Shown in pieces: positions 22,661-59,035 of a stretch of 64,000 nt of DNA. Made by a program: the position numbers and the translations under genes. This DNA comes from Clostridia bacterium (GTDB lineage: Bacteria; Bacillota; Clostridia; Christensenellales; CAG-138). Positions within the stretch are counted from its first letter, which is position 1. Every line of letters starts with the position of its first letter. Where the stretch lies: the NCBI GenBank assembly GCA_036677445.1, contig JAVBWI010000006.1, forward strand, positions 15,462 to 79,461. The letters are read 5' to 3'. The notes below the pieces were generated by a model. The model searched no databases, was not told where the DNA came from, and saw nothing but the letters and a program-made list of their open reading frames with translations.

Positions 22661-23323
22661 TTACGCTATTCCCATCTTATGCATAAGTAAATCGTGTGAT
22701 TCGATATCCGGTATCAGGAAAAAATGACCGGATATATATTCATTGCGGTCCACGAATACGGTTTCTAGAAGTAGAACGGTGTCTCCGAACGTACCATACA
22801 TGGCGGCAGGCAGATTCATCATGGCGCCGGCCATGTCGATAGCGAAGCCTGGGACGGAACAATTGATGTAGAGGTCTGTGAGCGAAGCGATGGCGTTGAC
22901 ATATGCACCGCATAGTATATTGGCAATTTCCATAAGTGCCGAACGCTGCATTTCTGAAGGGAATTCCGGCTCATCGTTTTCTTCCACGCCCATCGTACAC
23001 AGCAATGCTTTGGAAAGCTTCCGGGAATCTTCCAGCGTTTGTACAAACAATATAGCGCCGCGCAAGTCGCCGCACATTTCCACAAGCGAACCGGTAACAA
23101 GCTGCTCGGCGCCGCCGAGCAGCTCGCCCATCTTTGAAAAATCGCAGAAGCACGCACTTGGTACGTTTAGCCCGATCTGACGATCCAGCATGTTTGCCAG
23201 TGCGGTTGCAGCATTGCCTGCGCCTATGTTTTCCAACTCCCGCAGGAAATCCATTTGTATCGTATTTAATCCGCCAATATGTATGACGACCACCCTTTCA
23301 TGTACATGCGGACGCTCTATCAA
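22661..23323 (-). CDS. cheC: CheY-P phosphatase CheC (start uncertain; the true start may be a few codons downstream)
   Basis: LRELENIGAGNAATALANML and EIANILCGAY are the duplicated CheC motifs. The ORF-track start is TTG at 23323. Confidence 0.85.
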   Translation of the reverse strand: MIERPHVHERVVVIHIGGLNTIQMDFLRELENIGAGNAATALANMLDRQIGLNVPSACFCDFSKMGELLGGAEQLVTGSLVEMCGDLRGAILFVQTLEDSRKLSKALLCTMGVEENDEPEFPSEMQRSALMEIANILCGAYVNAIASLTDLYINCSVPGFAIDMAGAMMNLPAAMYGTFGDTVLLLETVFVDRNEYISGHFFLIPDIESHDLLMHKMGIA

Positions 23324-23378
23324 TAAACCTCAGACCCGCAGGCATTCTGTCGGCTTATCATAAAAGCAGCCCGCCACG

Positions 23379-23405
23379 TTTGCGGCCAAGGATGCCGACA
23401 ATTTA
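23379..23405 (-). promoter_or_regulatory. Weak sigma-28-like promoter candidate facing cheC
   Basis: On the minus strand: TAAA-15 nt-GCCGCAAA, compared with the B. subtilis SigD consensus TAAA-N15-GCCGATAT. The -10 matches 5/8 positions against GCCGATAT, or 6/8 if GCCGATAA is used. Confidence 0.3.
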
Positions 23406-23430
23406 TATATCGTGATTTTGATAAAAAGGG

Positions 23431-23457
23431 TTAATGTTTTCTGATAAAATCCGATAA
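23431..23457 (+). promoter_or_regulatory. Sigma-28 (FliA/SigD)-like promoter candidate for the 23560.. operon
   Basis: TTAA-15 nt-TCCGATAA. The -10 matches GCCGATAA at 7 of 8 positions. It lies about 100 nt upstream of the ATG at 23560. Confidence 0.45.
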
Positions 23458-23559
23458 ATGATTGTCGGCATAGTAAAAGCAGGATGCGAATTTGCTTTGC
23501 CGGTGCAAGCTTCCATGCAAGAAGGAAGGATCCTATTACTTGTAACGGAGGAAAAAGCA

Positions 23560-24618
23560 ATGAAAATAGCAAACTATAGCGTAAATGCACAAAGCGAGCA
23601 TTTATTGGAGAAAACAAGCTTTTCTGCGGAGCGGCTCGACATTTGGGCGGGCGAGGGCCCTGCGCTTACGGCGCAGGAAGAGGAGTCTTCTTTTATTGTG
23701 GAGCTTGGTTCGGCAGGCGCAAAACATCAGTTTGTATCAAGCAGCAGTTCTGCAGCAGGCACGCAGGGGGAAGGCGGCAGCGCGGTAAATGAATTGGATA
23801 TCAAGATCAGGCTGATCGAATCTTTAGTATATGCACTCACGGGCAAGCGTATCAGGTTGAGCACGCCTTCTCTGGATATAAAAAGCCTGCGTATGGAACG
23901 CAGCGGAGTGTCATCCTTCTCATTTGTGGACGCAGCGCCGGATGCGGGCGTGGGCTGGGGCATCGCCTACGACAAATTCGAAAGTTACTCTGAAACGGAG
24001 CAGATACGTTATACCTCTTCGGGCAGCGTGCAAACGGCGGACGGAAGAAATATTTCGTTTCACATGGACTTCTCCATGTCGCGCAGTTATTATGAAGCAA
24101 ACAGTCTGAGCATCCGCCTGGGCGATGCGGTACGGATGGATCCGCTTGTGATTGCATATGCAGGTACGGGGCCGCGGTTAAGTAAGGAAAAATATAGCTT
24201 CGACCTCAATGGCGACGGAAAAAACGAAAACATCTCCTTTGCAACAGGCGGCAGCGGCTTCCTGGCGCTTGATAAAAACGGAGATGGTAAGATCAACGAT
24301 GGTACGGAGCTTTTTGGCACACAAAGCGGCAACGGCTTTGCGGACCTTCGGGCATACGACGTGGACAAGAACGGCTGGATAGATGAATCCGACCCCGTAT
24401 TCAGCATGCTTTCGGTATTTACCATCGGAGCAGACGGAGAAAAGACTCTGTTTTCGCTGGGCGAAGCGGGCGTGGGCGCGATTTATCTCAACGAGACCGC
24501 AACACAGTTTGCGTTTACCGATGGTCGTGCGAGCGACGGAATGATGCAATCCAGCTCGGTTTTCTTAAGGGAAAACGGTACGGCAGGTACGATCCATCAT
24601 ATCGACCTGACGATATAG
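23560..24618 (+). CDS. Hypothetical protein with three EF-hand-like Ca-binding loops
   Basis: GGAGG lies upstream of the ATG at 23560. The loops are DLNGDGKNE, DKNGDGKINDGTE and DVDKNGWIDESD (24202-24393). There is no signal peptide. Confidence 0.6.
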   Translation: MKIANYSVNAQSEHLLEKTSFSAERLDIWAGEGPALTAQEEESSFIVELGSAGAKHQFVSSSSSAAGTQGEGGSAVNELDIKIRLIESLVYALTGKRIRLSTPSLDIKSLRMERSGVSSFSFVDAAPDAGVGWGIAYDKFESYSETEQIRYTSSGSVQTADGRNISFHMDFSMSRSYYEANSLSIRLGDAVRMDPLVIAYAGTGPRLSKEKYSFDLNGDGKNENISFATGGSGFLALDKNGDGKINDGTELFGTQSGNGFADLRAYDVDKNGWIDESDPVFSMLSVFTIGADGEKTLFSLGEAGVGAIYLNETATQFAFTDGRASDGMMQSSSVFLRENGTAGTIHHIDLTI

Positions 24619-24677
24619 CTATATACCGGATAAGAAATGTGCTTCTGGGCTGAACATACCGACGAAAGAGATCTGCA

Positions 24678-26369
24678 ATGAGGGTTGAACCGATCGCGCG
24701 GCAGGGCGCTCTGACCGACGTACAGGCTGAACAAAGGCCTGCTCTGCCGCAAAAGGGAGATGTCATCCGGGCGACCGTGCTCTCGCAGGAAGGCGAAAGC
24801 GTTTCGTTGAAGGGCGAGGACGGGCGTGTGTTCAATGCGCGGCTTGCTTCCGAGACTATGCTTCTTCCCAACGATATCGCCGAGCTCATGGTCATCGAGA
24901 GTATGACGGACAAGCTTATACTGCGGCTGGTTTTTGTAGAGCCCGCGCCGCAGGGCGGGGTGGCGGCGGAGACCGTTCGTACAGCACAAACTGCCACATG
25001 CAATACGGATACGGCCGCGCTTATCGACGTATTTGCAAGCCTGCATATAAAGCCCTCCGCACAAACGCTCGCAACCGCGGCATATGTGATGGAAAAATAC
25101 GGGGCGGATGAAAAAACAGCCGTGTTCTTTGCCGCAAACGATATTGTGGCAACCGGTGAAAGTATAAAGGCGTTTCAGTCGCTTACCGAAGGAAAAACGA
25201 TCGGGAAAACGCTGTATGCGATCTCACAGAGCATAGAGGGCGCGTTTGCCGAAGCCGCAGGGCAGGCCGGCGGCGTAAAACCGGCGTTACCGCAACCGGC
25301 TGTAAACACGCAGGAAACGGTACCGCAGGATATAGCGACGGCGGACAAGAACGCGGCGCAAAATACAGTGGCTGACGGCGTGAAAGAGGTCTCACCGCAG
25401 ACAACTGCGAACGTATCGGAAACAGTGCCGCAGCAGGATATGGCGGCGAAGGATACAGCACAAAACGCAACCCCGAACGCCGCGCCGCGCGAAGGGACGC
25501 CTATGCCGGACGGCGGTGCGCAAATGTCCGATAATGAGGTAAATACGGCCGGGGCGGGCGGCATGCAAGGTAAGGCTGCAAACACAGCCCAACCCCCTGC
25601 CGCACAAACAGGCATCAATGTGCAAGCGGCTTCCGCCGAACCTGCCGATGCTACGCACGATGCAAGGGGTGACGCCTTGCTGACAAATAAATCTGTTGAA
25701 GTGGAAGACGCTGCCGCATACACTTCAAAGGAACCGCCGGTTACGGGCGGGCAATCGCAGGGTGTGCAAAGCCTTGCGGAAAAGATTCTCTTGGTTTTTA
25801 CTAAAGTGGATGAGAGCCTGGATGCGCAAACGCTGAAAACCGCCGCCGAACAGACGCCGTACAAGCTTGCACAGCTTCAGAAGCTCATAAAAAATATCGA
25901 AATAGGTAATAAGGAAACGGTCTCCTCACAGTTATCGGAGGTAAATGCGCAGGCGAAGCTCACCCAGGATATTTCCAGATTCATTTGCATGCAGATACCT
26001 ATCCGCCAAAACGGGTATGACTCGGCGGAACTGTATATCTATAAGCGAAACAGGAAGGGCGCGCGGATCGATGCCGAAAACACGTCTGTGATATTGGGTC
26101 TCTCCACACAAAACATAGGCCGTGTGGAAGCGCTGATAAGGGTGGAGAACCGGAGCATATCCTTAACGTTTGGCGTTGAGAACGAGGCTGCGATACCGGC
26201 TTTTCGCGAGAGGTCCATGGAACTGTACAAGACGCTAAGCGGTATGCGCTATTCGCTCGCCGAGTTCAAGGTATCCGCGCTCAGCGAGCCTACCACGCCC
26301 GCCAACGCGGAGGAGTTTTTGACGGCGTCCATGCAAAAGACCGGCGCGTCGATTGATTACAGAGTATGA
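24678..26369 (+). CDS. FliK-like (flagellar hook-length control-like) protein
   Basis: It has a long low-complexity Ala/Gln/Thr/Pro centre. The C-terminal region (LGLSTQNIGRVEALIRVENRSISLTFGVENE...LYKTLSGMRYSLAEFKV) resembles the Flg_hook domain pattern. It is coupled by ATGA to a FlhB-C paralog. Confidence 0.5.
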   Translation: MRVEPIARQGALTDVQAEQRPALPQKGDVIRATVLSQEGESVSLKGEDGRVFNARLASETMLLPNDIAELMVIESMTDKLILRLVFVEPAPQGGVAAETVRTAQTATCNTDTAALIDVFASLHIKPSAQTLATAAYVMEKYGADEKTAVFFAANDIVATGESIKAFQSLTEGKTIGKTLYAISQSIEGAFAEAAGQAGGVKPALPQPAVNTQETVPQDIATADKNAAQNTVADGVKEVSPQTTANVSETVPQQDMAAKDTAQNATPNAAPREGTPMPDGGAQMSDNEVNTAGAGGMQGKAANTAQPPAAQTGINVQAASAEPADATHDARGDALLTNKSVEVEDAAAYTSKEPPVTGGQSQGVQSLAEKILLVFTKVDESLDAQTLKTAAEQTPYKLAQLQKLIKNIEIGNKETVSSQLSEVNAQAKLTQDISRFICMQIPIRQNGYDSAELYIYKRNRKGARIDAENTSVILGLSTQNIGRVEALIRVENRSISLTFGVENEAAIPAFRERSMELYKTLSGMRYSLAEFKVSALSEPTTPANAEEFLTASMQKTGASIDYRV

Positions 26370-26686
26370 GCAGCAGAAAAGAACCACAAACGATTCAGGC
26401 AGCCGCCCTGAAATATGAAGCGGGCAAACATTCAGCGCCATGCATCGTGGGCCTGGGCGAAGGGTATGTCGCGAAAAAGATGCTTGAGACTGCTGAAGAA
26501 AACCGTATACCGGTGGTCGAGGATCAGTCGCTTGTGGATATACTCAGTCATCTAAGCGTAGGCGACGAAATACCCGTGGAGTTATACCATGTAATCGCAC
26601 AGGTGCTTGCATTCATCGGCAGGCTGGACAACGAAACGGCCGGGCGCTATAAACTTGAGGATATTAAAAAGGAAAGACGCAGATGA
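26366..26686 (+). CDS. Stand-alone FlhB C-terminal-domain protein (YlqH / EscU-YscU-HrcU switch-domain family)
   Basis: QAAALKYEAGKHSAPCIVGLGEGYVAKKMLETAEENRIPVVEDQSLVDIL..ELYHVIAQVLAFI aligns residue for residue with FlhB 41025..42113 after its NPTQ site. It has no TM segments. Confidence 0.8.
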   Translation: MSSRKEPQTIQAAALKYEAGKHSAPCIVGLGEGYVAKKMLETAEENRIPVVEDQSLVDILSHLSVGDEIPVELYHVIAQVLAFIGRLDNETAGRYKLEDIKKERRR

Positions 26687-27687
26687 GTTCTCTCTCTATT
26701 GACCAGATGCTGCCATTGTTAGGAAATACGGAATACAAACCGACTGTACAGGACGCTTCGACATCGTTCGCGTCGCTGCTTTCGGCGCAGCTTGCCGCAA
26801 ACACAACGGAGAATACGGGGCTCGGAGGCGGGGTGTCGTTGGCATCGATGCTTTCGAATATGGCGTCGCTCATAGGGTCGGTGGATGGTGAAAGCGATCT
26901 CAAAGGCGCATTGATGATGTTTTGCATGATGGTGAGCTCGGGCGCCTCGGGCAGTTCGCTTGGCGCGGCAATGTCCAGCCTTTCGGCGGCGCTTTCTTCC
27001 GTATCCGGCGGCACATTTGAAAACCTTCGTTACGACATGCTTGCAAGCGGCTATGACAGACCCGTGCTCGAAAGGGTGAACGATACCTTCTTTAGCAACA
27101 GTACGGCGGAAGCAATTACGCCGTTTAGCGCTTCCAAGGCAGTCACGCCCGCGATTGCAAGCAGCCAGGGAAGCAGAAGCCCCGCGCTTTATCGCAGCGT
27201 CATCGATCAGTTTGATGTGAAAAACAATCCGCGCTACGCGGTGAACAAAAACGGCAACAATGATACCTATTGCAACATATTCCTGTGGGATGTAACGCGG
27301 GCGATGAATGCCGAGATACCCCATTATGTCGATCCCGCCACACTGGAGGCGCGTTCTTATCCGAATGTGAGCGGTGCAAAGGAACTCAATGCGAACGGCA
27401 TATACGACTGGCTGGCCCAAAAGGGCGCAAGCTACGGTTGGGTGCAGGTAAGTCCGGAACAGGCGCAGATGTATGCCAATCAGGGCAAGCCCGTGGTGAC
27501 CGCATGGAAGAACACAAGCGGCGGACACGGGCATGTACAGGTGGTGTGTCCCTCCAGCGACGGGCGGTATGATCCGGAGCGGGGTGTGACCATCGCGCAG
27601 GCCGGAAGAAGGCTTATGAACTATGCGCCGATCACCGATGTGTACAATGATAGCCTTTCCAGCGTCGTATATTATGCGCACGCCTAA
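26683..27687 (+). CDS. Hypothetical protein with C-terminal Cys/His papain-fold-like (CHAP/NlpC-P60-like) signature, tentative
   Basis: It has a Ser/Ala-rich N-terminal half. The C-terminal half carries NDTYCNIFLWDV (Cys197) and SGGHGHVQVVCP. Its start overlaps the previous stop (ATGA). Confidence 0.55.
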   Translation: MSSLSIDQMLPLLGNTEYKPTVQDASTSFASLLSAQLAANTTENTGLGGGVSLASMLSNMASLIGSVDGESDLKGALMMFCMMVSSGASGSSLGAAMSSLSAALSSVSGGTFENLRYDMLASGYDRPVLERVNDTFFSNSTAEAITPFSASKAVTPAIASSQGSRSPALYRSVIDQFDVKNNPRYAVNKNGNNDTYCNIFLWDVTRAMNAEIPHYVDPATLEARSYPNVSGAKELNANGIYDWLAQKGASYGWVQVSPEQAQMYANQGKPVVTAWKNTSGGHGHVQVVCPSSDGRYDPERGVTIAQAGRRLMNYAPITDVYNDSLSSVVYYAHA

Positions 27688-27722
27688 GAAAAGTAAAAAA
27701 TATGTACTTATGTGAATAAGCC

Positions 27723-27749
27723 TAAAGTCCGGCAGTGTTTTGACGATTA
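27723..27749 (+). promoter_or_regulatory. Sigma-28-like promoter candidate upstream of fliD
   Basis: TAAA-15 nt-GACGATTA, a 6/8 match to GCCGATAA, about 80 nt upstream of the fliD ATG. Confidence 0.4.
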
Positions 27750-27829
27750 TTATAATAACAGCTTTACGCTGCGGGCGGTTTAAAGGGATAACGGCTTTTC
27801 GTGCGTTGAAAAGGTAAGGAGTGAAAATC

Positions 27830-29356
27830 ATGTCATCTGTGAGCGAATTAAACAGGTCAATGCTGAGAATCACCGGGATTGCATCCGGGCTTGATACGGA
27901 ATCCATCGTCAACGACCTGCTCAAGGTGGACCAGTACAAGGTCGATAAACAGTTTAAGATCGCAACAAAGCTGGAGTGGAAGGGCGACGCTTACCGCGAG
28001 GTGAACCTGGCGCTCAAGAATTTCCGCGAGAAATATATGAGCGTATTAAGCCCGGATACGAACATGTACTCTTCTAACGCATACAAGGCATTTTCGGCGA
28101 CATTGAGTACGCAAACGAGCGCTGTGAGCATCACTGCGGGAAGTACGGCCACAGCGGGCTCCATGACGATCAATAAGATCACGCAGCTTGCCGCTTCGGC
28201 AACGATCAGCAGCAGTTCCGGTATGTTTACCGAAGGTACGATCAATTCCACGCTCAAAGAGGCGTTTGGCGAGGGTATGTTCGACGAAGAAGGGAACATC
28301 TCGTTCTCCATTAACGGCGAGGAATTCACTTTCAGTGAGGATACGACGATTGGGTCGATGGTTAGCACCATCAACTCCAATTCAAACGTCGGCGTGACCG
28401 TGAGTTTCAGCAGCCTGAAGAAGAATTTCACTTTCTCCGGAAAGGCAACGGGGGAAAGCAATACGTTTACAATCGTCAATTTGAGCGGTACCGCTTTTGC
28501 GGAGAGCGCGGACGACGCAGCCTTTAAAATTGCCGCCGGCACTTATAAAGGTAAAAACGCCAAATTACAGATTGAGGGGGTTGACGTGGAGAGATCCTCC
28601 AATACCTTCACGATCGACGGAATCACGTATTCATTAAAGGAATCCTCCGATTCGGAAATCAAGTTTAACATCGCGCGGGATATCGACTCAACTTACAAAA
28701 AAATCGTTGAGTTCATAGACGCGTATAATACGCTGATCGCAGATCTGCAGGCGAGAATTGATGAGAAAGTATACTCGGATTATAGCCCGCTCACCGAAAG
28801 CGAACGTGAGGAACTGACCGATACGCAGGCTACCCAATGGGAGGCGAAGGCCAAAAGCGGAATTCTAAAAGGGGACAGCGGAATCAGTACGCTGCTTCAG
28901 AATTTACGCAGCGCTTTTTACACAGCCGTAGCCGATACGGGGAAAAGCCCGGCAAGTATCGGGCTTAAGACAGGCGCGTATGCGACCACCGGCAAGATTG
29001 TCATAGATGAAAAACAACTGCGTACAGCGCTGGAAAATAATCCGGATGAAGTCGCAAAAATTTTCACAAATATCAGCACATCCACGGATGCCAAAACGAA
29101 GAACAGCGAGTCCGGCCTTGTGGTACGGCTGTCCAATGCGCTGAATCAGTATGTAGAGACGAGCACCAGCGTCACTCTCGCGAATAATGCCAACGCGATT
29201 ACGCAAGCGAATAACCGATTGGATCAGCTTGAGGACTGGCTGGCAAACAACGAAGAGAAATACTGGGCTAAATTTACGGCAATGGAGACCGCGCTTGCCT
29301 CATTAAACAGCCAGTCCAGTTGGCTCTCTTCTCTGTTGAGCGGCGTAAACGGCTGA
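27830..29356 (+). CDS. fliD: Flagellar filament capping protein FliD
   Basis: ITGIASGLDTESIVNDLLKVD at the N-terminus and a C-terminal coiled-coil region. AAGGAG lies 8 nt upstream of the ATG at 27830. Confidence 0.9.
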   Translation: MSSVSELNRSMLRITGIASGLDTESIVNDLLKVDQYKVDKQFKIATKLEWKGDAYREVNLALKNFREKYMSVLSPDTNMYSSNAYKAFSATLSTQTSAVSITAGSTATAGSMTINKITQLAASATISSSSGMFTEGTINSTLKEAFGEGMFDEEGNISFSINGEEFTFSEDTTIGSMVSTINSNSNVGVTVSFSSLKKNFTFSGKATGESNTFTIVNLSGTAFAESADDAAFKIAAGTYKGKNAKLQIEGVDVERSSNTFTIDGITYSLKESSDSEIKFNIARDIDSTYKKIVEFIDAYNTLIADLQARIDEKVYSDYSPLTESEREELTDTQATQWEAKAKSGILKGDSGISTLLQNLRSAFYTAVADTGKSPASIGLKTGAYATTGKIVIDEKQLRTALENNPDEVAKIFTNISTSTDAKTKNSESGLVVRLSNALNQYVETSTSVTLANNANAITQANNRLDQLEDWLANNEEKYWAKFTAMETALASLNSQSSWLSSLLSGVNG

Positions 29357-29410
29357 TGTGTTGTTGCGCTCTCAATACTTTGTTACTATATCACCGTCGG
29401 AGGAAGACGC

Positions 29411-29809
29411 ATGTACGCAATGAACAATGCTTTTCAGGCATATAAGCAACAGGGAATACTCACGGCCAATCCCGTCGAGCTGATCATACTGCTATATGAC
29501 GGATGCATCAAACAGTTGAAGATCGCAACGATGGCAATCGAAGAAAAAGAATACGAGCGTGCCAACGAAAGCATGCAGAAGGCGCAAAGAATTATAATGG
29601 AGTTATTGAACAGCCTGGATTTGCGCTATTCGATCGCCAAAGATTTGATGATGCTCTACGAATTTCTGATTCGGCAAATCATGGACAGCAATGCCGCCAA
29701 AAATGAGCAGAAGCTGGCGGATGTCATCCGCATACTCGGCGAGCTTCGCGAATCCTGGGTGCAGCTTTCCAAAAGCGGGATCAGCTCTGTTGCACAAATG
29801 GGGGAATAG
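29411..29809 (+). CDS. fliS: Flagellin-specific export chaperone FliS
   Basis: AYKQQGILTANPVELIILLYDG....A...I is typical of FliS. Length is 132 aa. Confidence 0.9.
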   Translation: MYAMNNAFQAYKQQGILTANPVELIILLYDGCIKQLKIATMAIEEKEYERANESMQKAQRIIMELLNSLDLRYSIAKDLMMLYEFLIRQIMDSNAAKNEQKLADVIRILGELRESWVQLSKSGISSVAQMGE

Positions 29810-29815
29810 AGTACG

Positions 29816-30253
29816 GTGGAACAAATAAGAGCGGCGCTTACGAAAACCAAACAAGAAAAACGCGATCTGCTTGCGCAGATGCTTTGCATTGCAAATATCC
29901 AGATGGCGAAGCTTGAGGAAGACGGTGCGGAAGCTTTCATGCAGTTGCTCAGTCAGCGAGAGCAGCTGATTCAACGCGTCGATCAGCTGGAGGAAACGAT
30001 ACACACACTTTCCTTGCAGTTGTCAAAAGAGCGTCAGGATGTTCTGCCCGAGGCTGATTCGGTCGACAGGGAGATACGGGATACGGTGGAAAAGATTTTA
30101 TCTCTTGACAAAGCGTGCAGCGCCGTGGCAAACGAAAAGCTTTTAAAGTACAAATCGGAATTCAAAAGTCTGAAAAAATCAGGTCAGCAACTCAATATAT
30201 ATGCGCAGTCATACGCTACGACCGGCGGCATTTATATAGATACAAAGAAATAA
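29816..30253 (+). CDS. FliT/FlgN-like flagellar chaperone (positional and compositional call)
   Basis: A 145-aa all-alpha, coiled-coil-like protein immediately after fliS, the fliT position in B. subtilis. It has a GTG start. Confidence 0.45.
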   Translation: MEQIRAALTKTKQEKRDLLAQMLCIANIQMAKLEEDGAEAFMQLLSQREQLIQRVDQLEETIHTLSLQLSKERQDVLPEADSVDREIRDTVEKILSLDKACSAVANEKLLKYKSEFKSLKKSGQQLNIYAQSYATTGGIYIDTKK

Positions 30254-30392
30254 TCTGTCGGTACTGGCATGTAATACGCGGGTATGCACTCCTGTAATGG
30301 TAAGGGTTTGTACGGTGCCTTGTATCGCTGATACTTTTGTAAAAAGAAAATCGAATTTATCGAGATATCAAAAATATCGGAGGTAATATACC

Positions 30393-30881
30393 ATGACATT
30401 GAACCAGGAGTTCTCGGAAGAACTGGAAGATACGCAGCACGGACGTTTTCTTACTTTTGCCTTGGGCGAAGAAACCTATGGAATTGAAATCAGGTATGTG
30501 ACGGAGATCATCGGCATACAACCGATCACGCCGTTGCCGGAAACAGCCGATTATATCAAAGGCGTCATCAACCTGCGCGGCAAAGTGATACCGGTGGTGG
30601 ATGTACGGCTGAAGTTTAAAAAGCCCGCCGTCGGCTATGACGACAGGACCTGTATTATTGTGATAGAAACGCAGGATATTTTCGCTGGCCTTATTGTCGA
30701 TAACGTAGCGGAAGTGGTTTTTATTGAAGATGAGGATATCGTGCCGCCGCCTTCCTACAGCACCGGCATACAGAACAGATATATCAGCGGTATCGGTAAA
30801 ACGGGCGGGAATGTAAAGCTTCTGCTGGATTGTGAACAGCTGTTTAAGGCCGATGAAGTACAGGCTTTGCTGAATATCTGA
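30393..30881 (+). CDS. cheW: Chemotaxis coupling protein CheW (paralog 1)
   Basis: [37 protein letters not shown] and GLIVDNVAEV are CheW motifs. Confidence 0.9.
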   Translation: MTLNQEFSEELEDTQHGRFLTFALGEETYGIEIRYVTEIIGIQPITPLPETADYIKGVINLRGKVIPVVDVRLKFKKPAVGYDDRTCIIVIETQDIFAGLIVDNVAEVVFIEDEDIVPPPSYSTGIQNRYISGIGKTGGNVKLLLDCEQLFKADEVQALLNI

Positions 30882-37769: not shown

Positions 37770-38204
37770 ATGCCTTTTTTAAGCTCCCTTGATATCAGCG
37801 GTTCCGCCCTTACGGCGCAGAGGCTGCGCATGGATGTCATCAGTCAGAATATTGCCAACGCAACAACCACCCGCACAGCGGGCGGGGAGCCGTACAGACG
37901 CAGGGTTGCCGTTTTTAGCGAACGGCGCGGCGCAACATTTTCCTCCTATTTCGATCATGCAAAAGCAACTGCGGGCAGCGGGGTGATTGTGTCCTCCATC
38001 GCGACGGATATGTCGGATTTCAAGAGTGAATATAATCCCGATCATCCCGATGCGGATGAAAATGGATATGTACAATACCCGAATGTGGATGAGGTAACGG
38101 AACTGGTGGATATGATGGCGGCGACGCGGGCCTATGAAGCGAACGTTACGGCGCTCAACGCCACAAAAAGCATGGCGCTTAAAGCGCTGGAGATAGGCCA
38201 GTGA
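37770..38204 (+). CDS. flgC: Flagellar basal-body rod protein FlgC
   Basis: LDISGSALTAQRLRMDVISQNIANATTTR, then YPNVD..E...MMAATRAYEANV. Confidence 0.9.
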   Translation: MPFLSSLDISGSALTAQRLRMDVISQNIANATTTRTAGGEPYRRRVAVFSERRGATFSSYFDHAKATAGSGVIVSSIATDMSDFKSEYNPDHPDADENGYVQYPNVDEVTELVDMMAATRAYEANVTALNATKSMALKALEIGQ

Positions 38205-38237
38205 ATTTGGTTTAAAGGATAATAAGGGGTGGACATT

Positions 38238-38531
38238 ATGCAGATACAGTCCGTATCCAATGTTGCGTCGATGCTGGGTACAGCATCGGCTGCCGAAAAA
38301 AAAACAAGCGGCGCAAGCTTCACCGATATCTTAAACAACGCCTTGCAGGATGCGCGGGAGACGGAAGCCGCCAATGACGTAAATACGCTTGCGTTGTTGG
38401 CGGGCGAGAGTACCGACATCCATACCGCGACAACGGAAGCGAAGAGGGCGGAGTTGGCGCTGAATTTGGCCATTCAGATCAGGAACAAGGTCATCGACGC
38501 CTACAACGAAGTGATGAGGATGCAGGTGTAA
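38238..38531 (+). CDS. fliE: Flagellar hook-basal body complex protein FliE
   Basis: About 97 aa, positioned after flgC. The C-terminus is AELALNLAIQIRNKVIDAYNEVMRMQV. Confidence 0.8.
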   Translation: MQIQSVSNVASMLGTASAAEKKTSGASFTDILNNALQDARETEAANDVNTLALLAGESTDIHTATTEAKRAELALNLAIQIRNKVIDAYNEVMRMQV

Positions 38532-38612
38532 AACAGGTGCCGCAAGGAGGATTTCCTCTTCTGTGGCATTTTGTTATGCACATGGATACATGCAGCAGCG
38601 GGGAGTTTGCTT

Positions 38613-40236: not shown

Positions 40237-41028
40237 ATGGAGAAAATCGTTAACGACGTACTCGTCAATCTCGAGTATTTCGTGCTGATATTCATGCGGA
40301 TAACGGCGCTGATATTCTCATCGCCCATATTTGGACGAAAGAACCTCCCGAACTCGCTGAAGATATGTCTGTGCCTGGCGCTCACCTATGTGATATTCAC
40401 CGCGTATCCGAACGTACCGGCGATCAGCTACAACAGCGTTCTGGAGTACGCGCTTTTGTGCATTAAGGAACTGCTTTTCGGGCTGGTGCTCGGCTATGTG
40501 ACGACACTGTTCTTTTCCGTCGTGCAGGTTGCAGGGCATGTAATCGATATGCAGATGGGCTTCGGCATGGTGAACATCTTTGATGTGCAGAACAATGTAA
40601 GCGTACCTGTAACGGGCAATTTCCTGTATGCCGTTACGATGCTCTCCTTCTTTGCGGTGGACGGGCATCAGCAGTTAATATATATTATGAATAGTACTTT
40701 CTCATATGTGCCTGTTGGCACGGTGACGCTCAACCCCGCTATTGGAATATCCGCGCTGGAGGTTTTTGTTCTTTCCTTTACGATGGCGCTCAATGTGGCG
40801 ATGCCAATTGTGGCGTCAGGGCTGATGGGTGAAGTGCTCATGGGCGTGATCGTCCGTACAACGCCGCAAATGAACGTGTTTGTTGTGGGCATCCCGCTCA
40901 AAATCATTCTTGGTCTCTTGGCGCTGTTTATTATATTGCCGGTTTACGTCTCCTACACCAATACTTTGTTCCGCGAAATGTTTACCTCTATCGACTATAT
41001 GCTGCGCGGGCTGGTGGGTGCGGCATGA
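40237..41028 (+). CDS. fliR: Flagellar export gate protein FliR
   Basis: A 263-aa polytopic protein located between fliQ and flhB. The sequence FVLIFMRITALIFSSPIFG is present. Confidence 0.9.
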   Translation: MEKIVNDVLVNLEYFVLIFMRITALIFSSPIFGRKNLPNSLKICLCLALTYVIFTAYPNVPAISYNSVLEYALLCIKELLFGLVLGYVTTLFFSVVQVAGHVIDMQMGFGMVNIFDVQNNVSVPVTGNFLYAVTMLSFFAVDGHQQLIYIMNSTFSYVPVGTVTLNPAIGISALEVFVLSFTMALNVAMPIVASGLMGEVLMGVIVRTTPQMNVFVVGIPLKIILGLLALFIILPVYVSYTNTLFREMFTSIDYMLRGLVGAA

Positions 41029-42113
41029 GCGCACAGCAGGGCAGCGGCGAAAGAACGGAAAAAGCAACCCCTAAAAAGCGACGCGAGGCGCGTGAGAAGG
41101 GTCAAGTATTCAAAAGTACGGATCTCGTTACGGCATTTTCGCTGCTTGTGATGTTTGGGCTTCTGGCCATTGCAGGTGAATCGCTGATAGACGGGCTGCA
41201 GAAACTGCTCACAAACTATTTCAATGTGGGTGATGCGCTGCCGGAGGTGATGGACGGCGCCGCGGCGCAAGTTATACTGCATAATGCGTATATCCGGTTT
41301 ATATTCATCATGCTGCCCGTATTGGGGGCGGCGTTGGCAGCAGGGCTGGTGTTCAATTTGCTGCAGGTAGGGTTTCTGTTTTCTTCGAAAGCGATGCAGC
41401 CCAAGATGTCCCGAATCAGCATGGTGGAGGGCTTCAAACGGATTTTTTCGAAGAAAACGCTGATAGACCTTATTAAATCGTTGATCCGGCTGGCGGTGCT
41501 TATAAAGGTCGCATATGACGAGTTTTCCAGCCAGCTGCAAAATATTCCGACATTAATGCAAGGAGAACTGGTTTCCTCTGCGAAAGCAAGCTGGAATATT
41601 ATACTCGCCATCGCTTTTAAGCTTGCGATCGCACTTGCCATACTTGCTCCCTTTGATTATTTGTTCCAGTGGTGGCAGTATGAAAAAGACCTGAGGATGA
41701 CCAAGCAGGAAGTAAAGGATGAGTACAAGCTTACCGAAGGCGACCCCCAGATCAAGGGAAGGATTCGCCAGAAGCAGCGGCAAATGAGCAGCATGCGCAT
41801 GATGCAGGCCGTGGCGGATGCGGATGTGATCATCACCAACCCAACGCAGTTCGCCGTTGCACTATCCTATAAAGAAGGCGTAAACAACGCGCCTGTAATC
41901 GTTGCAAAAGGGCAGGATTATCTTGCTAAAAAGATTCGTGAAAAGGCTGCGGAGCTGAAAGTGGAGATTGTGGAGAACAAGGCGCTTGCAAGACATTTAT
42001 ACTTTTTTTGTGAAATAGGGGACGAGGTGCCTGAAGAGCTTTATCAGGCGGTCGCAGAGATTTTGGCGTATGTATATCGCTTGAAGCATCCGCAAGGGGA
42101 GGTGAAACGATGA
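41025..42113 (+). CDS. flhB: Flagellar export switch protein FlhB
   Basis: N-terminal EKATPKKRREAREKGQV, four TM helices, and the autocleavage region VIITNPTQFAVAL (NPTQ at 41838-41849). Confidence 0.95.
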   Translation: MSAQQGSGERTEKATPKKRREAREKGQVFKSTDLVTAFSLLVMFGLLAIAGESLIDGLQKLLTNYFNVGDALPEVMDGAAAQVILHNAYIRFIFIMLPVLGAALAAGLVFNLLQVGFLFSSKAMQPKMSRISMVEGFKRIFSKKTLIDLIKSLIRLAVLIKVAYDEFSSQLQNIPTLMQGELVSSAKASWNIILAIAFKLAIALAILAPFDYLFQWWQYEKDLRMTKQEVKDEYKLTEGDPQIKGRIRQKQRQMSSMRMMQAVADADVIITNPTQFAVALSYKEGVNNAPVIVAKGQDYLAKKIREKAAELKVEIVENKALARHLYFFCEIGDEVPEELYQAVAEILAYVYRLKHPQGEVKR

Positions 42114-46925: not shown

Positions 46926-47684
46926 ATGCCTGATGTAGGGAATGCAGCTGCGCAGCGGATTTGGGAAAAATATGCGCAGGATAACTCGCAGGAAAGCAAA
47001 AACGAGATTGTCCTGCACTATATGTATCTTGTCAAGCGCATCGTATACCGATTGCTTCCCACCTATGAGGGATACAGTAATTTTGACGACCTGTTGAGCT
47101 GCGGCGTATTGGGGCTGATCGACGCGATCAATAAGTTTGATCTTAAACGTGAGATTCAGTTCGAGAACTATGCCTCGCTGCGTATACGGGGAGAGATCAT
47201 CGACCATATGCGCAAGCAGGACTGGGCGCCATCGAGCTTAAGGCGCAAAATACAGGCTATCAGCAGCGCATACGGTGATTTGGAAAAGGAGCTGTCCAGG
47301 GAACCGACTGATTCGGAGGTTGCGGATTATCTCGGCATGAGCGACAAGGAAATGCAGAAGATCGTTGGCAAAATGCACATGTTCAATGTCATGCATTTTG
47401 AAGAACTGCTTACAAGCGACTGCTCGTTGGCGCAGGTCGTCCAGGATAAGGGAGAGACGCCCGAGGAAAGCCTGGAGAACAACGAAATGAAGAAGATACT
47501 CGCTGATATGATTGAAACGCTGCCCGAAAAAGAACGACTCGTGATTACGCTGTACTATTATGAAGAACTGACGCTCAAGGAAATTGCAGGGATGCTCGGT
47601 GTATCCGAATCACGCGCTTCACAGATACATTCCAAGGTGATTATGAAATTTCGCACAAAGCTGCAACTGATTTTGAACCAATAA
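46926..47684 (+). CDS. fliA: Flagellar sigma factor sigma-28 (FliA/SigD)
   Basis: Regions 2-4 are present. LITLYYYEELTLKEIAGMLGVSESRASQIHSKV is the region 4.2 HTH. Confidence 0.9.
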   Translation: MPDVGNAAAQRIWEKYAQDNSQESKNEIVLHYMYLVKRIVYRLLPTYEGYSNFDDLLSCGVLGLIDAINKFDLKREIQFENYASLRIRGEIIDHMRKQDWAPSSLRRKIQAISSAYGDLEKELSREPTDSEVADYLGMSDKEMQKIVGKMHMFNVMHFEELLTSDCSLAQVVQDKGETPEESLENNEMKKILADMIETLPEKERLVITLYYYEELTLKEIAGMLGVSESRASQIHSKVIMKFRTKLQLILNQ

Positions 47685-56510: not shown

Positions 56511-56993
56511 ATGTTTATTGAAACAGCAAGGTTCGGGAATTTCGATTTAAAAGACAGCAAAATTATCGAATTTCCGAGCGGGCTTCCAGGGTTTGAGGAG
56601 CTGCGTGACTTCATCATTCTGGAAATAAATGAAACAAAGCCAATGTATTGGTTGCAATCAACACAGAACAAATATATTTCGCTGCCTGTAATTATTCCTT
56701 TTGAATTGCTGGATGATTATTTTATAGAGATTCGGGAGAACGAACTCAAAGGCCTGCAGATTGAAAACAAGAACGATTTGCTTATACTCAATGTCGTTGT
56801 AGTACCGGATGACATGACCAAAATGACAGCGAATCTGGCGGCGCCCATCATCATCAATTTAAAGCTTGGAATTGGAAAGCAGTTGGTGATCGATGCAGCG
56901 GATCTTCCTATCAGGTATCCGATTTATCATATGATTATGAAGAAACTGAGAGGGGGCGATGCGGATGCTGGTTCTGTCAAGGAAAACGGGTGA
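56511..56993 (+). CDS. fliW: Flagellar assembly factor FliW
   Basis: IIEFPSGLPGFEELRDFIILE...YWLQS and ANLAAPIIIN are present. Confidence 0.9.
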   Translation: MFIETARFGNFDLKDSKIIEFPSGLPGFEELRDFIILEINETKPMYWLQSTQNKYISLPVIIPFELLDDYFIEIRENELKGLQIENKNDLLILNVVVVPDDMTKMTANLAAPIIINLKLGIGKQLVIDAADLPIRYPIYHMIMKKLRGGDADAGSVKENG

Positions 56994-57177
56994 GGTTCTT
57001 GCGATCGGGCAGGACATTACACTTGAAGTGATATCCATCGACGGTGACAGAGTACGTTTGGGCATCCAGGCGCCCAAAGATACCCGGATATTCCGTAAGG
57101 AATTGCTTGATGAAACGGTCGATATCAATAAATCTGCAGTCAATGCACCGGTGATATCCTTTCAAAAGGAACAGTAA
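56965..57177 (+). CDS. csrA: Carbon storage / translational regulator CsrA
   Basis: MLVLSRKTGEVLAIGQDITLEVISIDGDRVRLGIQAPKDTRIFRKEL. The start overlaps the fliW 3' end by 29 nt. Confidence 0.92.
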   Translation: MLVLSRKTGEVLAIGQDITLEVISIDGDRVRLGIQAPKDTRIFRKELLDETVDINKSAVNAPVISFQKEQ

Positions 57178-57262
57178 CCGATAATTTGGCCGCACAATAA
57201 GGTTCACCTTCACGCCGCAAGGTACCCACCAGCCTGAATGATATACAACATAAATGGCAAAA

Positions 57263-57292
57263 ACGGCCTGCCGCAGTCTTGCGGCAGGCCGT
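57263..57292. terminator. Bidirectional terminator between csrA and the convergent VanW gene
   Basis: Perfect 13-bp stem ACGGCCTGCCGCA-gtct-TGCGGCAGGCCGT. AAAA lies upstream and TTCT downstream. Confidence 0.8.
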
Positions 57293-57310
57293 TCTAAGTC
57301 CATGAAAATG

Positions 57311-58873
57311 TTATGCAATGGCGTCCACTGTCACGGCGCTTGGCCCCACAATGGTTTCTCCGGAATAAGCCTTGTATCGCGTAATATCGATGGTGACGGT
57401 TTTCACGACTTTGCCGTCTTTGAGGTAGGCAGCGTAGGATTGCCATACCGAGCCGGATTTACGCGCCACAAATACTTCCTTGTAGCCGACAGGCTTGGTC
57501 GTATCAACGGTGTACTGCATGGGCCCGGAAGGAGAGATGCTGCCCGTGTGCTTGGAAGAGAGCCTGATCTCATCATATTCATCCGGGAAGGGCTCGCCGT
57601 ATATTTCAAAATGGATGGTTTTATCCGTTTCATCCACCCAGCAAAACAAATAGACGGGAGAATTGGTATTGTTCTTCCATTTGAAATCAATGCGCCCGCT
57701 GTCGATGGTGGCGTCCAGACCGCCGTCTACATATGTAAGGCGGCCGGAATGCCCCTGCCGGTATACGACTTCAAGGTTGGACTTGAGCACACAAAGATAC
57801 ATGGTGGTAGAAACCTGGCATACGCCGCCGCCAGCCTGATCTTCGGTGCGCCCCTGCACAATGGCGGGAGCGGCTTGCCACCCTCCGCTGAATGTACGGT
57901 GGCCCAGCGTGCCGTTGGTGGAGAACTCTTCACCCGGCTGCAATACGGTACCATTGATCAGCCCTACTGCCTTTTTGATATTATACACGCGGCTCTTGCG
58001 GTTGTATGGAGACTTATTGAAGGAGGTATAAGAGCTGGCGCGCAGCACCACCTTGCTTTGCACATCTTCAAGCGTTACGGCTGCCGGGGTCGTATGGAAG
58101 GGGATCTCCATATCCTGATATTCGCCGCTTTGCGCCATTGCCAACAAGGTGTCGCAGAGCGACGGCTGATCGACCTGCATGCCATCTTCATCGGGCGTGT
58201 AGGCAAAGCGCTGCTCGGGCGTAGTGGTAGCCGCTGCCTGTACATATGCGCTTTTCTTTTTTTCCTCTTCTGAGACAGATTCTTTATCGATGAGCACTGT
58301 AAATTGCGCATCAACCGGCAGCGTATCCAGTTTTTCCGCAAGGCCTGCAACATAAGCCTCTACCGCTTGCTCGCTGGGGGTGCAGGATGTATAGAATGTG
58401 CGTTTGTTGGTGCCGATATCCAGCAGCTCGTCCTGCAGTTCACCAAGCGTACCTTGGCGTCCGAGCGCCATCGCTTCCTGCAGAATGGCTTGGGTATTAA
58501 ATTGCATGCCAAATATTTGCGCATCAGCGGGGTAGGCGTTGCCCTGAAAAGTCAGAGTGAACGCAATCTCATCCAGCATAGCCTGCTCTGTGGGCGCAAT
58601 GGCGGCGGCCGCCTCTTCAGGCGTCATGCCGCCTATGGATACATCGTTGACCAATATGCCTTCATGAAACACGCCTGAGCTTATGATGCTTTGGCGAAGC
58701 GCTTCATCCTGTTTGATTTTATTGGAATAAAAAATCCCGGCAGCAGCGAGCACCAAAACAATCGCGATCATTGTGATCCAGACGGCCTTTTTTTTAGAAC
58801 CGGGCGCCTTTTTCGGTGACTCGATGGATACATGGTCATTTTGGGTTAAACTGAATTCGTTCGGCGTTTCCAT
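57311..58873 (-). CDS. VanW-family protein with N-terminal TM anchor
   Basis: INGTVLQPGEEFSTNGTLG, GGGVCQVSTTMY and HSGRLTYVDGGLDATI are VanW motifs. Start set at METPNE with GGAGG upstream. Confidence 0.8.
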   Translation of the reverse strand: METPNEFSLTQNDHVSIESPKKAPGSKKKAVWITMIAIVLVLAAAGIFYSNKIKQDEALRQSIISSGVFHEGILVNDVSIGGMTPEEAAAAIAPTEQAMLDEIAFTLTFQGNAYPADAQIFGMQFNTQAILQEAMALGRQGTLGELQDELLDIGTNKRTFYTSCTPSEQAVEAYVAGLAEKLDTLPVDAQFTVLIDKESVSEEEKKKSAYVQAAATTTPEQRFAYTPDEDGMQVDQPSLCDTLLAMAQSGEYQDMEIPFHTTPAAVTLEDVQSKVVLRASSYTSFNKSPYNRKSRVYNIKKAVGLINGTVLQPGEEFSTNGTLGHRTFSGGWQAAPAIVQGRTEDQAGGGVCQVSTTMYLCVLKSNLEVVYRQGHSGRLTYVDGGLDATIDSGRIDFKWKNNTNSPVYLFCWVDETDKTIHFEIYGEPFPDEYDEIRLSSKHTGSISPSGPMQYTVDTTKPVGYKEVFVARKSGSVWQSYAAYLKDGKVVKTVTIDITRYKAYSGETIVGPSAVTVDAIA

Positions 58874-59035
58874 CCTAACCTCCATACGCATATGCAAGCT
58901 TAAAAAAAACTTTACGTACCCATTATAGTAGCACAATAAATCCGTGTAAAGCACGCTTTTATAAAGAAGCACTTATTAAATTGACATGGCCTAAGTGCCG
59001 TCTTGTGTGCCGCTGCCGATTTCTTTCGGGCTGTG

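Follow-up and report, generated by a model that had tools for sequence, protein, structure and literature searches.

Our analysis of a 64 kb stretch of DNA from a Clostridia bacterium (contig JAVBWI010000006.1; the whole stretch is called the window, and all positions are numbered within it) identified a late flagellar locus of four genes, numbered 1 to 4 here. Its core is a FliK paralogue (gene 2), an FlhX-type protein (gene 3) and a predicted peptidoglycan hydrolase that has no signal peptide (gene 4), followed by fliD, fliS and fliT. In the source lineage a gene for a predicted self-processing module (SPM) protein (gene 1) stands ahead of this core with its own putative sigma-28 promoter. 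We hold this descriptive part of our reading with high confidence. The composite reading, in which positions 23431-30253 form a late flagellar operon driven by sigma-28, the FliK-like/FlhX pair tunes the export gate and the products of genes 1 and 4 are exported through the flagellum, is held with moderate confidence, and its export and gate parts taken by themselves are tentative.

The four genes are co-oriented, with ATGA overlaps read directly in the sequence at 26366 (genes 2 and 3) and 26683 (genes 3 and 4), and gene 3 appears translationally coupled on both sides. The chemotaxis genes cheC-cheD-cheY-cheA diverge from genes 1-4, while fliD, fliS and a fliT-like gene lie downstream. In none of the four proteins is any stretch hydrophobic enough to suggest a signal peptide or membrane helix (maximum Kyte-Doolittle value of any 19-mer ≤1.36). 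An earlier note on this DNA had described the four co-oriented genes, a sigma-28-like promoter before them and the two overlaps, all of which were found in place, and its description of the single genes also held. Gene 1 has three conserved EF-hand-like loops and no signal peptide-like stretch, gene 2 has a FliK-like architecture with a Flg_hook match above cut-off and a low-complexity middle, gene 3 corresponds to the FlhB switch domain alone, and gene 4 joins a variable, Ser/Ala-rich N-terminal half to a C-terminal Cys...His signature in which Cys197 and His284 are invariant across 40 homologues.

The recurrence of this arrangement was surveyed by scanning one genome per species with a gene 4 profile and annotating the hits locally, which gave 80 loci. 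Nearly all of these come from uncultured Oscillospiraceae, Christensenellales or 'Bacillota' metagenome-assembled genomes (MAGs), the one cultured species being Papillibacter cinnamivorans, and the source bacterium, likewise uncultured, is itself close to Oscillospiraceae, Christensenellales and Feifaniaceae MAGs. A FliK-like gene was found in 67 of the 80 loci and flhX in 64, with the FliK-like gene directly upstream of flhX in 54. The FliK-like gene, flhX and gene 4 stood in this order in 40 loci and all four genes in 14; a further eight loci had the FliK-like gene and gene 4 with no flhX between them, three (mostly cut contigs) had flhX and gene 4, and 15 had gene 4 with no pair gene contiguous upstream, including eight without any pair gene in the sequence covered. 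The gene following gene 4 was fliD in 64 of the 70 loci with downstream sequence. The arrangement is not a chance one, as it recurs in 80 species-level genomes. One of the loci (L072, JBLNCA010000037.1) is labelled as a 'Burkholderiales bacterium' MAG and carries a Clostridia-type flagellar locus of an order near-identical to that of L066; the label is probably a binning or labelling error.

The earlier note had proposed an accessory four-gene module built on a self-contained pair, with a co-occurrence analysis of the pair as a check. The four genes do co-occur, but not as a fixed unit, since gene 1 is present in only 14 of the 80 loci, gene 4 stands without the pair in at least eight genomes and the pair is not always intact or in the same orientation. 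It is split in some loci, and one subclade has it, or flhX by itself, turned round beside the flgE-to-fliY operon. SPM genes were also found at a conserved non-flagellar locus (AsnC regulator, aminotransferase, HSP20, SPM, RadA; L007, L170, L171), beside glycosyltransferase genes (L006), and directly after flaG-fliD-fliS and a 112-aa gene (L172, 2235-6995; 43% identical). The last is an independent association of an SPM gene with the cap operon in a more distant genome. Because the pair, gene 4 with fliD, and the SPM gene each occur apart or rearranged, the arrangement is best described as modular, with the SPM gene as a mobile late gene.

Late control of the locus, as the earlier note had suggested, is supported at motif level across species. 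The promoter before gene 1 is the sole intergenic plus-strand match in the window to the pattern T[AT]AA-N14-16-NCCGATAN. Of 68 loci, 23 had a strict sigma-28-like motif in the 300 nt ahead of their first module gene, where the background rate of 0.036 per kb predicts about 0.7, and 38 matched a relaxed pattern. Every gene 1-containing locus whose upstream region was read has a TTAAT...CGATA-type element 100-130 nt before the gene 1 start codon. Stand-alone copies of gene 4 are likewise preceded by a sigma-28-like motif (L005/L043, L038, L039), as are the SPM genes at the HSP20-RadA locus, where it lies 50-80 nt upstream (L007 7925-7952, L170 5922-5948, L171 5907-5933). The whole SPM family in these bacteria may thus belong to the flagellar regulon.

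A second position of the strict motif (CTAAAG-N-CCGATA) was found inside 19 of 62 FliK-like genes, 493-502 nt before the stop codon (L027-L036, L040, L044, L065, L066, L072, L074, L075, L078, L080, L086); gene 2 of the window lacks it. It lies near the start of the C-terminal domain, in frame with the peptide LK..[AST]D[INK], whose Leu codon is always CTA. It could be a promoter for flhX, gene 4 and fliD or mere protein conservation, as constraint at the DNA and protein levels is inseparable here. Between promoter and start codon, the gene 1 leader shows a CUUCC that can pair with the GGAGG Shine-Dalgarno sequence and a GGAAGGA in the apical loop (RNAalifold, 7 loci), with weak covariation (2 of 19 pairs). 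It is a possible CsrA or other translational control site; Rfam models returned only sub-threshold chance matches over 23200-27900. With its anti-Shine-Dalgarno CUUCC and GGA-rich loops the leader resembles CsrA-controlled flagellin leaders, and CsrA and FliW are both encoded in the window.

Gene 4 gave no match in Pfam, NCBIfam, PHROGs or the sequences of the PDB, whether searched as a single sequence or as a profile and with E values up to 10 (noise aside), and its homology search returned 377 proteins, all unnamed, from Clostridia MAGs. In their alignment the N-terminal half varies and the C-terminal ~190 residues are very conserved, the invariant positions including Cys197 (TYCNIFxWDV), His214, His284 (GHVQ), Gln286 and His333. 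The AlphaFold (AF2) model has a mean predicted local distance difference test (pLDDT) score of 84.9 and shows disorder over residues 1-24, then a helical domain and an alpha/beta domain, with Cys197 at the start of a helix and His284 on a strand. Foldseek placed Tse1/Tae1 as the top matches of the C-terminal domain (E 5e-5, target template modelling (TM) score 0.6-0.7, probability 1.0). A profile search of 1.84 billion representative proteins recovered 2,463 relatives of this domain at E ≤0.001 and 1,573 at E ≤1e-10, and in seven of ten long relatives scanned (P0317, P0320, P0331, P0332, P0343, P0377, P0393) it was fused to PG_binding_1, LysM, Glucosaminidase or SLT domains. As relatives fuse the domain to peptidoglycan-binding and wall domains, it is likely to work on peptidoglycan, a line of evidence independent of the fold. 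Gene 4 is therefore predicted to encode a Tae1/Tse1-like peptidoglycan hydrolase of a family that has no Pfam model. Pfam found no wall-binding domain in gene 4 itself, and one other relative (P0351) carries the gene 4-type domain fused to BACON domains. A relationship to FlgJ was rejected, as neither Rod_binding nor Glucosaminidase matched in Pfam and hhalign against Escherichia coli FlgJ gave a probability of 0.3%.

The product of gene 1 has a precomputed Pfam match to the SPM family PF26745. In its AF2 model (pLDDT 73.9) the C-terminal half has the SPM of Neisseria meningitidis FrpC (6sjx/6sjw) as its top Foldseek matches (E 2.7e-9, TM score 0.71), and a profile of 37 gene 1 homologues matched 6sjw with hmmsearch (E 6.9e-11) in an alignment that begins exactly at FrpC Pro415. 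Residues D194-P195-L196 are invariant in these 37 homologues, and the predicted scissile bond is Asp194-Pro195 (nt 24139-24144). The three conserved D-x-[DN]-x-[DN]-G loops lie at about residues 215-226, 238-250 and 267-278; two of them align with FrpC D462-E474 and D499-D511, and FrpC Trp451 aligns with Phe227. The FrpC module folds upon binding Ca2+; its Asp414-Pro415 bond is then broken, and the Asp anhydride created at the new C-terminus joins a lysine. At the Ca2+ concentration of the cytosol the module is not folded, and it needs more than about 100 uM to be active (PMC7078468). Sequence and model together indicate that gene 1 encodes a Ca2+-dependent Asp-Pro SPM protein of the FrpC type, with a predicted clip-and-link activity. 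The earlier note had called it a Ca-binding protein, which was right about the loops and undersold the protein. A generic EF-hand, dockerin or VCBS protein was considered and dropped, as all such Pfam matches were below threshold and the SPM accounts for the loops; EF-hand, dockerin and FG-GAP gave only sub-threshold matches. No RTX repeat family was among the Pfam matches of gene 1, and no type I secretion genes lie adjacent to it. The gene 1 family is large (>6,900 matches). In the model of gene 1, the N-terminal passenger (residues 1-190; 23560-24129) consists of beta-hairpins of great length (strands 3-30, 133-159 and 164-188) and one helix, with weak Foldseek matches to the hairpins of pore-forming toxins.

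Gene 2 passed the Pfam cut-off for Flg_hook (32.4 bits against 29.8). Upstream of this domain it has a long middle rich in Ala, Gln, Thr and Pro, preceded by an N-terminal region that is conserved and family-specific, and the gene lies between cheC and fliD, away from the hook genes (fliJ-fliK-flgD-flgE). It is probably a divergent FliK paralogue of the FliK2 type. Gene 3 matched only the last 74 positions of Bac_export_2 (262-335; E 1.7e-17) and is 43% identical to residues 277-353 of the full-length FlhB encoded in the same window. Its best-scoring NCBIfam model was TIGR00789 'flhB_rel' (88 bits, below the cut-off of 117.35). As the match is to the FlhB C-terminus alone, the start lies a few residues past the position of the FlhB cleavage motif, with no membrane domain, and the NPTH motif itself is absent from all 69 of 69 gene 3 orthologues, gene 3 is identified from its sequence as an FlhX/YlqH-type protein, a free copy of the already processed FlhB-CC. 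In the window's full-length FlhB, the motif at about residues 271-274 reads NPTQ instead of the canonical NPTH (IITNPTQFAVALSY); this could bear on the retention of a pre-cleaved FlhX.

Pairs of this kind are already known. Pseudomonas putida KT2440 carries a FliA-dependent operon fliK2-flhX (PP_4328-PP_4329), whose function is not known and which occurs alongside the canonical fliK and flhB, and Helicobacter pylori FlhX can partly replace FlhB-CC (bioRxiv 10.1101/2021.08.29.457346). The FliK-like/FlhX pair of the window matches the uncharacterised P. putida pair, so that the ruler and switch-domain pair seen by the earlier note is real and conserved but not new. Both FlhX and FliK2 were recognised in genomes as early as 2005, with their function still unexplained. 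The ylqG-ylqH genes of Bacillus subtilis may be the same pair; a literature search on ylqH and ylqG returned nothing useful.

Whether gene 2 could be the only FliK of its host was addressed with a metagenome contig (L091) found by scanning with the hook protein of related loci. L091 encodes, in order, fliF, fliG, fliH, fliI, fliJ, a 229-aa gene, a 480-aa Flg_hook protein (53.7 bits), flgD and flgE, then motA, motB, fliL, fliM, fliY and cheB, followed by flhX on the opposite strand and the first ~340 codons of a gene 2-family gene up to the contig end. This last gene gave tblastn E values of 1e-67 to the orthologue in L069 and 1.6e-6 to the window protein. A canonical FliK therefore coexists in L091 with FlhX and the N-terminal part of a gene 2-family gene. 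The order FliK-FlgD-FlgE is the same in L090, and in both loci the Flg_hook protein at the canonical site is one other than gene 2. No sequence link could be drawn between gene 2 and the canonical FliK of L091, as BLAST found no similarity and a hidden Markov model (HMM) of 65 gene 2 family members did not detect it; the search with gene 2 itself returned 21 close proteins only and was uninformative about a second FliK. The window cannot tell of another FliK because the fliF-to-fliN block, which normally includes fliK-flgD-flgE, is missing from it. As L091 carries a canonical FliK beside FlhX and a gene 2-type gene, orthology and synteny suggest that the window's own genome probably has a further FliK besides gene 2; gene 2 as the sole FliK was part of what the earlier note had named as refuting its reading.

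In the composite reading, completion of the hook would make FliA active and the operon would be transcribed along with the filament cap genes. FlhX, as a soluble copy of cleaved FlhB-CC, would dock at the export gate, either replacing FlhB-CC or next to it, and the T3S4 domain of the FliK paralogue would engage it, the two together tuning the gate or holding it in the late-substrate state. The products of genes 4 and 1, taken as disordered at their N-termini and with no Sec signal, would then be late substrates that exit by the flagellar type III channel. Outside the cell gene 4 would cut peptidoglycan peptide stems. Ca2+ would fold the SPM of gene 1 and the Asp194-Pro195 bond would break, after which the Asp anhydride so formed would either be hydrolysed or attach the N-terminal fragment of 194 residues to a lysine close by. 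Export through the flagellum is proposed because the predicted chemistry of both proteins would be useful only outside, they have no other export signal, and they lie under late flagellar promoters beside fliD; the earlier note's suggestion that genes 1 and 4 are cargo is plausible on these grounds. The decoy or modulator role that the same note put forward for the pair is hypothetical.

Several observations weigh against this reading. The strict sigma-28 motif is absent in many loci, and expression, secretion and interaction of all four proteins are predicted throughout. In gene 1 the fourth Ca site of FrpC (D419-G424) and one of its three EF-hands (D521-E532) are not conserved, and the N-terminus of gene 4 resembles neither FlgJ nor any type III substrate known. 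As the fliF-to-fliN block falls outside the window, the source genome's canonical fliK was not seen. At least eight flagellated genomes keep gene 4-fliD and have no pair, no FlhX open reading frame (ORF) was found in P. cinnamivorans (L068), which has the FliK-like gene, gene 4 and fliD, and L173 has the SPM gene, the FliK-like gene, FlhX and fliD without gene 4. No strict functional dependence ties the parts together.

The same observations give room to other explanations. Genes 1 and 4 might be ordinary members of the sigma-28 regulon that are not type III cargo, their neighbourhood with fliK2-flhX reflecting co-regulation only. Gene 4 would then be a motility-phase autolysin like the SigD-dependent endopeptidase LytF of B. 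subtilis, where SigD-dependent autolysins are established, and gene 1 a surface or matrix protein, with both released by another route or gene 4 acting inside the cell. SPM genes that keep sigma-28-like promoters at a non-flagellar locus fit this account, as do the occurrence of gene 4 without the pair and of the pair without gene 4. It accords less well with the lack of a Sec or Tat signal, membrane anchor or wall-binding domain in genes 1 and 4, given that long gene 4 homologues do carry wall-binding domains, or with the position of gene 4 immediately upstream of fliD in most loci and its translational coupling to flhX in the window. The SPM moreover needs an unfolded, low-Ca2+ state before export, which suits a channel taking unfolded substrates. 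We regard this explanation as rather unlikely.

Two further alternatives concern the pair. It may be a negative regulator, in which soluble FlhX titrates T3S4 domains or late chaperone-substrate complexes off the gate and so limits export or flagellar number once filaments are under construction. FlhX has neither a membrane domain nor the cleavage motif and cannot itself form a gate, the promoter motif is late and the pair is evolutionarily dispensable, as would be expected of a modulator; however, in H. pylori FlhX acts in favour of export and not as a block, and co-transcription with fliD-fliS, whose products are due for export at that time, speaks against a general brake, leaving this very unlikely in our view. 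It is also very unlikely that gene 2 is the sole bona fide hook-length ruler, moved beside fliD, with gene 3 a redundant spare part that has no role of its own. That view could draw on the FliK architecture and above-threshold Flg_hook match of gene 2, on the window showing no other FliK and missing the fliF-to-fliN block between fliE and fliO, on the NCBI name of an orthologue (FliK) and on H. pylori FlhX behaving as a spare part. Against it stand the separate FliK between fliJ and flgD in L091, which also has flhX and a gene 2-type gene, the same FliK-FlgD-FlgE order in L090, and the missing BLAST similarity between gene 2 and the L091 FliK. A sigma-28 promoter would moreover make a hook ruler too late, and at least eight flagellated relatives have no gene 2 at this locus.

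Beyond the composite reading, the flagellar type III system might have a third class of late substrates, none of them structural parts, with FliK2-FlhX as a dedicated gate-opening adaptor, the Ca2+-armed gene 1 fragment attaching to the filament, cap, cell wall or host surface and gene 4 acting as a wall-cutting enzyme. We consider this bolder proposal quite unlikely; if true, it would give FlhX and FliK2 their first function and make gene 1 the first SPM protein that does not belong to RTX type I secretion. Of the parts of the locus, the still unexplained FliK-like/FlhX pair gains another member here. New are an SPM protein in what appears from sequence to be a non-RTX, flagellar-regulated setting and a predicted hydrolase family that goes with fliD and for which Pfam lacks a model. 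The finding matters in that FlhX and FliK2 share a putative late operon with two proteins in need of an export route, which provides concrete candidate clients in about 80 species. The locus also extends the FrpC clip-and-link chemistry, as a prediction, to small Clostridial proteins that number in the thousands and stand behind promoters of the flagellar type. This chemistry is now used as the NeissLock protein-ligation tool. If genes 1 and 4 are indeed exported by the flagellum, gut-associated anaerobes would offer a Gram-positive-type case in which non-structural enzymes are secreted by this route.

Table 1. Coordinates of the locus and of related flagellar genes in the window (nt, nucleotides; aa, amino acids).
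Feature	Positions	Strand	Basis or remarks
Sigma-28 (FliA/SigD)-like promoter	23431-23457	+	TTAATGTTTTCTGATAAAATCCGATAA; TTAA-N15-TCCGATAA
Conserved 5' leader of gene 1	23458-23559	+	Leader alignment and RNAalifold consensus, 7 loci
Gene 1	23560-24618	+	ORF, 352 aa
Gene 1 domains	Residues 1-194, N-terminal passenger; then C-terminal FrpC-type SPM (PF26745)	+	Pfam, structure, profile
Gene 2	24678-26369	+	ORF, 563 aa
Gene 2 domains	Residues ~27-198, conserved N-terminal region; low-complexity middle; residues 462-538 (nt 26061-26291), Flg_hook/T3S4	+	
Gene 3	26366-26686	+	ORF, 106 aa
Gene 4	26683-27687	+	ORF, 334 aa
Gene 4 domains	Disordered start; residues ~26-145, helical N-terminal domain; residues ~145-334 (nt 27115-27684), predicted papain-like peptidoglycan-hydrolase domain	+	AF2, Foldseek
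fliD	27821-29356	+	Pfam and NCBIfam match; conserved downstream partner of gene 4
fliS	29411-29809	+	Pfam and NCBIfam match; conserved downstream partner of gene 4
fliT-like gene	29816-30253	+	Pfam and NCBIfam match; conserved downstream partner of gene 4
flhB, full-length	41025-42113	+	Bac_export_2 positions 1-335, E 1.8e-126; presumed docking partner or paralogue of gene 3
fliA (sigma-28)	46926-47684	+	Sigma70 r2/r3/r4 domains; after flhF-flhG-PilZ; presumed regulator of the 23431 promoter
fliW	56511-56993		
csrA	56959-57177		

The window as a whole is a large flagellar and chemotaxis region (Table 1). Its order runs from cheW, a methyl-accepting chemotaxis protein gene, cheR, cheB, an SLT lytic transglycosylase gene, flgB and flgC through fliO, fliP, fliR, flhB, flhA, flhF, flhG, a PilZ gene, fliA and FapA to flgF, flgG, flgN, flgK, flgL and fliW, with csrA also present. 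The block fliF-fliG-fliH-fliI-fliJ-fliK-flgD-flgE-motAB-fliLMN does not stand between flgC/fliE and fliO (38204-38571) in the window. The same break recurs in the relatives L003, L004 and L005, and in L084 and L091 the fliF-to-fliN block lies just upstream of the module. A 150-aa DUF327 gene is present between the fliT-like gene and cheW/SLT in L003, L004, L005 and L008, with none in the window over 29816-30393. Two long overlapping ORFs lie downstream of csrA (57254-58273 on the plus strand and 57311-58972 on the minus strand), the plus-strand one having no Pfam match and an odd composition.

Comparison with known systems places each part of the locus close to, yet apart from, a described relative. 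The pair resembles P. putida fliK2-flhX in that the gene for a Flg_hook protein immediately precedes that for a free homologue of the FlhB C-terminus, a likeness of domains and gene order. It differs in its host phylum (Bacillota against Pseudomonadota), in its linkage to fliD and a predicted peptidoglycan hydrolase and in the conserved N-terminal region that gene 2 has of its own, and its FliA dependence is represented by the promoter motif only, whereas the P. putida operon is FliA-dependent. Gene 3 shares with H. pylori FlhX (HP1575) and the YlqH/TIGR00789 proteins a short, soluble form that corresponds to processed FlhB-CC, in a genome that also encodes FlhB. In contrast to these it scores below the family cut-off and is translationally coupled on both sides, and replacement of FlhB-CC is known for the H. 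pylori protein only.

Gene 1 is similar to the SPM of FrpC and of Actinobacillus ApxIVA in predicted fold, in its EF-hand-like Ca2+ loops and in the Asp-Pro at the N-terminal edge of the module. Unlike these RTX proteins it is 352 aa long, has no RTX repeats or type I secretion signal, belongs to a Gram-positive-type lineage and stands behind a sigma-28-like promoter in or near flagellar loci; in comparison to FrpC it also lacks the incomplete fourth Ca site and the third EF-hand and has Phe in place of Trp. The C-terminal domain of gene 4 resembles Tse1/Tae1, the papain-like type VI amidase of Pseudomonas aeruginosa (NlpC/P60 superfamily), by overall fold and in its invariant Cys at a helix start and His on a strand. 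It differs by the absence of sequence-level similarity, by an extra 145-residue N-terminal domain and by its surroundings, where no type VI or immunity gene is nearby and the neighbours are flagellar or chemotaxis genes in the 80 loci. FlgJ of Salmonella and E. coli, a rod cap fused to a muramidase, is exported by the flagellar type III system. Gene 4 is like FlgJ in being a signal-less, two-part protein at a flagellar locus, with a non-enzymatic N-terminal part and a C-terminal peptidoglycan hydrolase (predicted for gene 4). It is unlike FlgJ in that the two are not homologous, the enzyme fold is another one, and gene 4 goes with fliD, a late gene, rather than with rod genes.

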